NCBI RefSeq assembly: GCF_003334385.1
Contig: NZ_QOWN01000005.1
Strand: one strand, 5' to 3'
Source: Escherichia coli
Lineage (GTDB): Bacteria; Pseudomonadota; Gammaproteobacteria; Enterobacterales; Enterobacteriaceae
DNA: 64,000 nt
This document shows, piece by piece, positions 61,901 to 64,000 of this stretch. Made by a program: the position numbers. The number at the start of each line of letters is the position of its first letter. Within the stretch, counting starts at the first letter, position 1.

Positions 61901-64000
61901 AACACTACGCCAACCAGAATATAGACGCCCGTGCGGCGTACACCACACAGATTCAATACCGCGAGTACCGCAATTGCTACAGCCGCGACGCCAAGAGAGG
62001 CCATCGATAAGTCATTAGTGTAGAACAATGCGATGATAATGATGGCCCCAAGATCGTCGATAATAGCCAGAGCCATCAAAAAGATCTTCAGTGCTAACGG
62101 AACACGACTTCCCAACAGCGCCAGCACACCAAGTGCAAAGGCAATGTCAGTAGCCGCCGGGATCGCCCACCCTTCGCGGGTAATCGGATCGGCATAGTTA
62201 AAGGCCAGATAGAGTAATGCCGGCACAATCATCCCACCAATAGCGGCGATAACTGGAAATGCGGCCTGGCGTAAGCTGGCTAGCGATCCTTGCATCAGTT
62301 CACGTTTAACTTCCAGACCGACTAACAGGAAAAATACCGCCATCAGCGCGTCATTTATCCATAACAGCATGTTTTTGTTGATTTCGAGTGAACCAACCCG
62401 GAGCTGAACCGGCGTCTCCAGAAAGTCGTGATACCATCCACTGGTTGCGCCGCTGTTGGCCATCATCATCGCCAGGATAGCGGCAATGATAAGAATAATG
62501 CCTCCCGAGGCATCACTGCTAAAGAATCGATGCAGATGTTTCACTTTTTATTTCTCTTTCAGGTGAATAGATCGTTTTTACTATTTTACCCCGCACGAAT
62601 CATCGTTAAAATCAGATTATAGTGTAGGAATAACTCGTTTTTTACGAGCAATTAAAGGATTTGCGCCATCAGCGGTGAGATGAGTTTTTGACGGCTGTAA
62701 GCGCTAACGGGTGACCCTAAGCCCTGATAATCATAGCTTAAGGTGAGGATTTCTGAGGGATTAATTAGGAAAAGTAATAATTAATTTCTTGTCAGTCGGC
62801 GTTATTTGTTAGGACAATATTTCAAAAATAATCCAGCTTGTCGTCAATAATTGCGATAAAGAGATAAATTAAAGTTAAATAATTAAATCATTAAAAAATT
62901 ACGCCACAAAAATGCGAGGCGTCTTCAGGATTAGAATCGATAAAACAGAATGGGTTAAAGAGAGCGATATAATAGCGGCGGGTGCTTGAGGCTATCTGTC
63001 TCAGGCATTAGCTGAACGGCAGATAGAGAAAAGCCCCGAGTGATATTTTACTATCAACCCGAGGCCCCCTATATGCTGAACACATGTAGAGTGCCTCTTA
63101 CTGACCGTAAGGTCAAGGAGAAGAGAGCAATGAAGCAGCATAAGGCGATGATTGTCGCCCTGATCGTCATCTGTATCACCGCCGTAGTGGCGGTGCTGGT
63201 AACGAGAAAAGACCTCTGTGAGGTTCACATCCGAACTGGCCAGACGGAGGTTGCTGTTTTCACGGCTTACGAATCCGAGTAAGAGCAACGGCGGGGAGTG
63301 ATCCCATAAGCGCTAACTTAAGGGTTGTGGTATTACGCCTGATATGATTTAACGTGCCGATGAATTACTCTCACGATAACTGGTCAGCAATTCTGGCCCA
63401 TATTGGTAAGCCCGAAGAACTGGATACTTCGGCACGTAATGCCGGGGCTCTAACCCGCCGCCGCGAAATTCGTGATGCTGCAACTCTGCTACGTCTGGGG
63501 CTGGCTTACGGCCCCGGGGGGATGTCATTACGTGAAGTCACTGCATGGGCTCAGCTCCATGACGTTGCAACATTATCTGACGTGGCTCTCCTGAAGCGGC
63601 TGCGGAATGCCGCCGACTGGTTTGGCATACTTGCCGCACAAACACTTGCTGTACGCGCCGCAGTTACGGGTTGTACAAGCGGAAAGAGATTGCGTCTTGT
63701 CGATGGAACAGCAATCAGTGCGCCCGGGGGCGGCAGCGCTGAATGGCGACTACATATGGGATATGATCCTCATACCTGTCAGTTCACTGATTTTGAGCTA
63801 ACCGACAGCAGAGACGCTGAACGGCTGGACCGATTTGCGCAAACGGCAGACGAGATACGCATTGCTGACCGGGGATTCGGTTCGCGTCCCGAATGTATCC
63901 GCTCACTTGCTTTTGGAGAAGCTGATTATATCGTCCGGGTTCACTGGCGAGGATTGCGCTGGTTAACTGCAGAAGGAATGCGCTTTGACATGATGGGTTT

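Follow-up and report, generated by a model that had tools for sequence, protein, structure and literature searches.

We analyzed a 64,000-nucleotide (nt) stretch of the Escherichia coli contig NZ_QOWN01000005.1 (assembly GCF_003334385.1), hereafter called the window, in which the insertion sequence (IS) IS186/IS421 lies directly behind the toxin gene hokC. The sequence identifies the region, which lies between nhaA and dnaJ, as the chromosomal hokC/mokC/sokC toxin-antitoxin locus (type I); hokC and sokC also bear the older names gef and sof, respectively. The IS breaks the hairpin downstream of hokC and detaches the terminator and the fbi element from a hokC/mokC/sokC unit that is otherwise intact. 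Our analysis makes it very probable that IS186, by inserting into a repeatedly struck hot spot, the stem-loop in the 3′ untranslated region (3′UTR) of hokC, disables the delayed-killing module while leaving the toxin gene itself whole. Arrangements of this kind have been described before; the present one is an independent insertion of opposite orientation in a non-K-12 strain, and the target specificity established for IS186 accounts for it fully.

IS186 splits the 3′ stem-loop of an intact hokC gene

The toxin frames and the features of the junction, in window positions, are:

63073 to 63282, plus strand: mokC reading frame, 69 amino acids (aa), in frame with hokC and ending at the same stop (open reading frame (ORF) list, K-12 annotation, stop-free translation)
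63130 to 63282, plus strand: hokC toxin ORF, intact, 50 aa, A22V relative to K-12 (ORF list, Pfam HOK_GEF)
63290 to 63304, plus strand: remnant of the hokC 3′ hairpin, consisting of the 5′ arm GGCGGGG and the loop (comparison with the empty-site allele and the full IS)
63295 to 63304, plus strand: left copy of the 10-bp target-site duplication GGAGTGATCC (comparison with the empty-site allele and ATCC 8739)
63305 to 63327, plus strand: terminal inverted repeat of IS186/IS421, 23 bp, transposase-proximal (exact unique match)
63305 to 64000, plus strand: IS186/IS421, first 696 of 1339 bp, ended by the window edge (100% identity to ATCC 8739)
63360 to 64000, plus strand: insL transposase gene, first 213 of 370 codons, in the same direction as hokC (ATCC 8739 annotation WP_001300563.1)

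An earlier note on this DNA had described an intact 50-aa Hok ORF with an overlapping mok frame and placed the IS186 terminus at 63305, 22 nt past the hok stop. Both statements agreed exactly with the ORF list, the Pfam match and our alignments. The hokC frame runs from the ATG at 63130 to the TAA at 63280-63282, and its product, MKQHKAMIVALIVICITAVVAVLVTRKDLCEVHIRTGQTEVAVFTAYESE, matches Pfam HOK_GEF (PF01848) over residues 6-47 (E=3.5e-24); the match to the NCBIfam Hok family (E=3e-12) lies under the curated cut-off of 73 bits. HokC is a Hok/Gef small membrane toxin of the usual length (~50 aa) and differs from K-12 HokC by one substitution, A22V, caused by a variant at 63194 in the alignment with K-12. 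Overexpression of HokC is toxic (bioRxiv 10.1101/2025.08.07.668861). The start codon of the overlapping upstream frame mokC, ATG 63073, is located 19 codons 5′ of the hokC start, and mokC and hokC share their stop in the K-12 annotation as well; translational coupling of hok to mok is putative.

The hokC stop is separated from the IS by the 22 nt from 63283 to 63304 (GAGCAACGGCGGGGAGTGATCC). The IS begins with the terminal repeat CATAAGCGCTAACTTAAGGGTTG at 63305-63327, the sole match in the window at ≤3 mismatches and one that appeared in 0 of 100 shuffles. From 63305 to the window end the DNA agrees at 100% of positions with the IS421/IS186 element in E. coli ATCC 8739. Identity of 100% extends over the whole segment 62545-64000, both to this strain and to many natural isolates, but not to K-12. 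The far IS end, the right-hand duplication copy, fbi and the terminator lie past the window end and were read from the identical ATCC 8739 record (L001). In that record the complete IS measures 1339 bp (L001 3761-5099) and is bordered on both sides by the 10-bp direct duplication GGAGTGATCC. The left terminal repeat is exact and the right one agrees at 22 of 23 positions. The mismatch in this far repeat (L001 5077-5099) falls on IS position 1319, where C replaces the A of both K-12 IS186A and the near repeat. The element carries a single gene for an IS4-family DDE transposase (insL, 370 aa). At the DNA level this gene is 100% identical to the one annotated as an IS421-family transposase in ATCC 8739; the match to the NCBIfam IS4 family transposase model (transpos_IS4_1, E=6.5e-11) stays under the curated cut-off because the protein is truncated by the window end.

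Removal of the IS and of one duplication copy restores the empty site GGCGGGG-AGTGAT-CCCCGCC, a stem-loop of the form GGGG(N6)CCCC in the hokC 3′UTR that starts 7 nt past the stop codon. A study of 59 new IS186 insertions had defined the target of this element as 5′-GGGG(N6/N7)CCCC-3′ (Lee et al., 2016; PMC5009759). The hokC site has this form, and the duplication, whose right copy was taken from ATCC 8739, covers the core of the motif. IS186/IS421 has transposed into this GC-rich stem-loop. In ATCC 8739 the DNA 3′ of the IS consists of the rest of the hairpin (CCGCC), then CUUCAACGCACCC, and then a hairpin with a U-run, GCCTGCCCACGGGCAGGCTTTT, that adjoins the dnaJ stop. The displaced 3′ elements, which the earlier note had proposed to identify by alignment with K-12 and with IS-free hokC loci, are these three: the hairpin rest, fbi (CUUCAACGCACCC) and the terminator. 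The IS has displaced fbi and the terminator, which is shared with dnaJ, 1349 nt downstream and past the window, and has left the promoter, tac, ucb, mokC, hokC and sokC untouched.

At 62699-62709, 600 bp 5′ of the IS, 11 nt (TAAGCGCTAAC) coincide with the IS186 terminal repeat in its core. We considered this stretch as a solo IS186 repeat and rejected it as a probable chance match, given its >3 mismatches to the full repeat and its absence from K-12.

Transcripts of the interrupted allele are predicted to adopt the open form

The leader of the hokC messenger RNA (mRNA) and the antisense gene comprise the following features:

62968 to 62973, plus strand: candidate −10 box of the hokC promoter, TATAAT, read by eye, 7 nt 5′ of the inferred mRNA 5′ end, with no good −35
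62980 to 63132, plus strand: hokC mRNA leader with tac, metastable 5′ hairpin, ucb, SokC target and mokC start (Rfam RF01794)
62980 to 62991, plus strand: tac element GGGUGCUUGAGG, the hokC mRNA 5′ end (folding)
63023 to 63081, minus strand: sokC antisense RNA gene, predicted, 59 nt, over the mokC start codon and ending in a hairpin and U-run (coordinates transferred from K-12 b4413)
63031 to 63037, plus strand: ucb element AAGCCCC, the alternative partner of tac (folding)

The Rfam family RF01794 ('sok') matches 62980-63132 over its full length with 122.4 bits (E=5e-29; gathering score 59) and puts the 5′ end of the hokC mRNA at GGGUGCUUGAGG. The structured leader that goes with an antisense Sok RNA is thus present; the sokC RNA itself is predicted by coordinate transfer from the K-12 annotation (b4413) through an indel-free alignment. 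By analogy with the weak hok promoter, TATAAT at 62968-62973 may be the −10 box of hokC. A consensus promoter scan of the window listed neither the hokC nor the sokC promoter. The hokC box is missing from the list because of its poor −35, and the sokC promoter combines a good −35 (TTGACC) with a poor −10.

In the tac/fbi/ucb/dcb model established for hok of plasmid R1, the fold-back inhibits translation and stabilises an inert mRNA pool, and the open tac-ucb form is both translatable and bound by Sok (PMC9841398). The transcript of the empty hokC allele, taken from the 5′ end to the terminator, is 399 nt long. In its minimum free energy (MFE) fold, nt 1-12 (tac) pair with nt 352-364 (fbi) at p 0.94-1.0. 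Cutting the intact RNA behind the GC hairpin, so that nt 1-336 remain, switches the pairing of nt 1-8 to nt 52-58 (ucb), at p 0.86-1.0. The window allele, continued by 0, 100, 200 or 400 nt of the IS, gave this same tac-ucb pairing with p 0.86-1.0. A 5′ tac, a ucb and a 3′ fbi on one mRNA of ~400 nt are therefore not found in the window allele, although tac and ucb are present. Since the IS parts tac from fbi and the terminator, all modelled transcripts that end before the displaced fbi fold straight to the open, SokC-sensitive form. At three other IS186-bearing hok loci, the complement of the 5′ end likewise lies 20-40 nt past the IS, with compensatory differences between the paralogs.

The GC hairpin is followed by ACUUUU and could itself be read as the hokC terminator, which would give a transcript of ~336 nt; a hokC/gef transcript of '~330 nt' has been quoted (PMC3562002). 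We regard it as more likely that the hairpin and ACUUUU mark the point where 3′ trimming stops, because the complement of tac follows 20-35 nt further on and is succeeded by the stronger, dnaJ-shared terminator.

If hokC behaves like R1 hok, the stable, closed and untranslatable full-length mRNA could not accumulate from the interrupted allele. The open-form mRNA would instead be bound by SokC, so that it would be degraded while it is made and no latent pool of toxin mRNA would be left. The hokC toxin is thus probably silent in this strain. The earlier note had proposed that the IS disrupts a 3′ fold-back needed for processing and translation of the mRNA. The first half of this proposal stands, as folding shows that the IS severs fbi, whereas the second half has to be reversed, given that in the R1 model the fold-back is not needed for translation but inhibits it (PMC9841398).

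Expression of interrupted hok loci and alternative explanations

For K-12, the literature treats hokA, hokC and hokE as inactivated by insertion elements that lie near, and not in, the ORF (PMC12214031, PMC7232551 and PMC3562002; Pedersen and Gerdes, 1999, as cited there), in line with the earlier note. Several points nevertheless weigh against a disabled module in the window allele. Our statements on RNA are equilibrium fold predictions throughout. The K-12 gef mRNA is reported to be made despite the IS, to end inside it and to be controlled by the antisense RNA (PMC3562002), and K-12 hokC transcripts are detectable, with 9% A-to-I editing (PMC12214031). 'Inactivated' therefore does not equal 'not expressed'. 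Finally, the intact hokC of ECOR24 caused neither post-segregational killing nor rifampicin-induced killing (bioRxiv 10.1101/2025.08.07.668861, citing Pedersen and Gerdes, 1999). Phenotypically, then, the IS may matter little.

The ECOR24 result, with its lack of killing and of rifampicin activation, also speaks for a different explanation, in which the IS is functionally neutral, hokC being silent with or without it owing to an excess of SokC and a weak promoter, and the insertion a hot-spot accident. The target motif alone accounts for the frequency of the insertion, and the ~27% of complete E. coli genomes that carry IS186 at hokC (see below) tolerate it. On the other hand, six diverse empty hokC alleles show no variation in tac, ucb, the hairpin or fbi but do vary at adjacent 3′UTR positions; this suggests continuing selection on the architecture of the mRNA. 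The predicted fold also changes qualitatively once fbi is removed. Furthermore, private changes in functional elements were found in two of the six sampled IS-bearing alleles with comparable flank. O111:H8 SF26 carries G5A in tac (window equivalent 62984), and E400634 carries a 3-nt deletion in the sokC region (nt 76-78; 63055-63057) together with G292A in hokC (63271). These cases are anecdotal, but constraint may be relaxed after IS insertion. Taken together, we consider a neutral insertion possible but doubtful, and loss of the delayed-killing function remains our preferred explanation.

Two further points against this preferred explanation come from the IS itself. On the IS strand that is read from hokC in the window orientation, no intrinsic terminator was convincing, and in the full read-through RNA of 1748 nt the pairing of tac (nt 1-12) with fbi was still the MFE state, with p>0.94 at equilibrium. 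Transcription from hokC might accordingly run through insL to the displaced fbi and terminator, yielding a 1.75-kb RNA with paired ends; the locus would then stay regulated and its promoter would feed the transposase gene. The pairing is an equilibrium prediction only, however, and while a further ~1.35 kb is transcribed, tac can refold onto ucb, mok can be translated, SokC can bind and RNases can cut the RNA. An mRNA this long is likely to meet Rho-dependent termination and cleavage, and many IS elements guard against transcription from outside. On these kinetic grounds read-through is unlikely, and that it keeps the locus regulated seems to us very improbable.

A related and more far-reaching idea, to which we give equally little credence, is that the conserved hok 3′ stem-loop serves IS186 as a landing pad, and that transcription from the weak constitutive hok promoter may enter insL and continue as far as the displaced fbi and terminator, giving the end-paired 1.75-kb RNA. 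If true, IS186 activity would be tied to the closed/open switch of the hok mRNA, or hok loci would be selected 'safe havens' for IS186. The co-directional orientation of insL that this idea involves is also seen at K-12 hokE and at two plasmid hok genes. We retain a disabled module as the most probable outcome of the insertion. For annotation, this means that an intact ORF does not equal an intact toxin-antitoxin module; beyond correct annotation the point carries little weight.

IS186 inserted repeatedly and in both orientations at the hokC site

The earlier note had held that the arrangement matches the description of the K-12 hok loci. The K-12 locus hokC/gef-sokC/sof with IS186A (b4412/b0018/b4413; insL1, b0016) occupies the same place between nhaA and dnaJ, and its IS186A lies at the same base pair, 22 nt past the stop, with the same duplication GGAGTGATCC. 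In K-12, however, insL1 is convergent with hokC, whereas insL is co-directional with hokC in the window, i.e., the IS is inverted. The flanking haplotype is different as well: toward nhaA 21 of 760 positions differ from K-12, toward dnaJ 7 of 301 (2-3%). The same site combined with the opposite orientation and another flanking haplotype therefore indicates an independent insertion.

Descent from a K-12-type insertion would mean that the window allele goes back to one old event and that the K-12 data on the gef mRNA, its length and its 3′ end within the IS, could be transferred to it. The shared base pair and the shared 10-bp duplication fit such a history, and so does the similarity of the IS copies, which differ at 2 of 1339 nt (99.85% identity), both differences being located past the window end. 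The inverted orientation refutes identity by descent of the IS orientation, and the divergent flanks argue in the same direction. Moreover, both flanking haplotypes also occur with an empty site at 100% identity, in strain 504239 for the window flanks and in strain JP538 for the K-12 flanks. The window orientation also occurs in S30, on a haplotype only 1 nt from K-12, and in O157:H16 and E400634, on further haplotypes. Single GGGG(N6)CCCC sites are known to be struck repeatedly and in both orientations (PMC5009759). We thus regard common descent with the K-12 insertion as extremely unlikely.

Since the orientation differs from K-12, the 3′ part of any hokC transcript differs too. The IS strand that is read from hokC in K-12 contains several hairpin-plus-U candidates, at ~227 and ~572 nt, and these terminator candidates are absent in the window orientation. 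K-12 hokC/gef transcript data are consequently not transferable to strains in which the IS is reversed.

K-12 has only 19+35 GGGG(N6/N7)CCCC sites, among which single sites were struck many times, and because the motif is palindromic, insertion can occur in either orientation (PMC5009759). No further GGGG(N6)CCCC was found in the 64-kb window. The hokC stem-loop is a perfect IS186 target and therefore a hot spot, which in E. coli has been struck time and again with the IS facing either way. Of the 5426 complete genomes of this species, 644 carry the IS at hokC in the window orientation and ~818 in the K-12 orientation, many of the latter being laboratory derivatives, while 3815 have an uninterrupted hokC-dnaJ spacer; IS186 is thus present at hokC in ~27% of the complete genomes. 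In a comparison of 13 alleles the duplication was GGAGTGATCC throughout, and ATCC 8739, K-12 and four other strains had identical junctions. The simplest reading of these sequence comparisons is that several independent insertions occurred at one hot spot. Recombination, and not repeated transposition, could be behind part of the haplotype pattern.

Some strains with the window-type IS186 (e.g., ST540, L008 19-1415) additionally harbor an IS150 that ends inside sokC and the hokC leader; in ST540 its end corresponds to about 63057/63058 of the window, and the same IS150 end is found in two further matches. In such strains the locus is therefore disrupted on both sides.

IS186 in other hok genes and comparison with known systems

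Insertion into a hok 3′ hairpin is not confined to hokC. At K-12 hokE, IS186 sits in the homologous hairpin GCGGGG-AGTAAT-CCCCGC; in the hok gene of a phage-like plasmid (ECE228) it sits in GGCGGGG-AGAGAT-CCCCGCC; and plasmid hok of c1-17 carries two tandem copies in the hairpin GGGGGG-CAAC-CCCCCC. In this last plasmid, pCTX-M-2_c1-17 (NZ_AP040899.1; L011 2545-5233), two complete IS186/IS421 copies stand head to tail in one hok 3′ hairpin; each is flanked by a duplication of its own, indicating two hits at this site.

Of these loci, K-12 hokE/sokE with IS186B (b4415; insL2, b0582) resembles the window in layout: the IS starts ~20 nt past the hok stop, insL is co-directional with hok, and an fbi-like complement lies past the IS, as in the window-type allele. 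It differs in being another hok paralog at another chromosomal site (ybdK-entD).

The hot spots observed in mutation-accumulation lines, e.g., at fimA and menC sites, have the same motif as hokC, and there too the duplicated segment holds the 6-nt core and one site is reused in either orientation (Lee et al., 2016; PMC5009759). Unlike at fimA and menC, the motif in hokC is a functional RNA hairpin that is conserved across the hok family, which makes several paralogs, as well as hok genes on plasmids, vulnerable in the same way. That the 3′ hairpin apparently needed by the hok mRNA is at the same time a perfect IS186 target explains why IS186 recurs beside hok genes. Surveys of 'active' chromosomal hok loci should allow for IS186 in the 3′ hairpin, as it occurs at hokC in ~27% of complete E. 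coli genomes, at K-12 hokE and in plasmid hok genes.

The hok/sok system of plasmid R1 resembles intact hokC in its mRNA of ~400 nt (399 nt predicted for hokC), in the pairing of the 5′ and 3′ ends of the full-length mRNA with a change to tac-ucb after 3′ trimming (predicted for hokC), in an antisense RNA over the mok start and in a Hok/Gef toxin. In contrast to R1, the window locus is chromosomal and its fbi and 3′ hairpin have been severed by the IS, and even the intact chromosomal hokC of ECOR24 gave no post-segregational killing.

Gene order and further observations in hokC

The gene order in ATCC 8739 is nhaR-nhaA (minus strand), hokC (plus), IS421-family transposase gene (plus) and dnaJ-dnaK (minus). 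The succession nhaA-hokC-IS-dnaJ is common to ATCC 8739 and K-12.

A 95-codon ORF on the minus strand (63001-63288) runs antisense to the whole hokC/mokC region and lacks support; the composition of the sense frame is its most likely source.

Codon 47 of hokC (Tyr, UAC) is reported to be the site of A-to-I editing by TadA, which changes Tyr to Cys in ~9% of K-12 hokC transcripts (PMC12214031). In the window this codon occupies 63268-63270 within GCUUACGAAUC, where the UACG context resembling the tRNA-Arg anticodon is present and the motif is intact.

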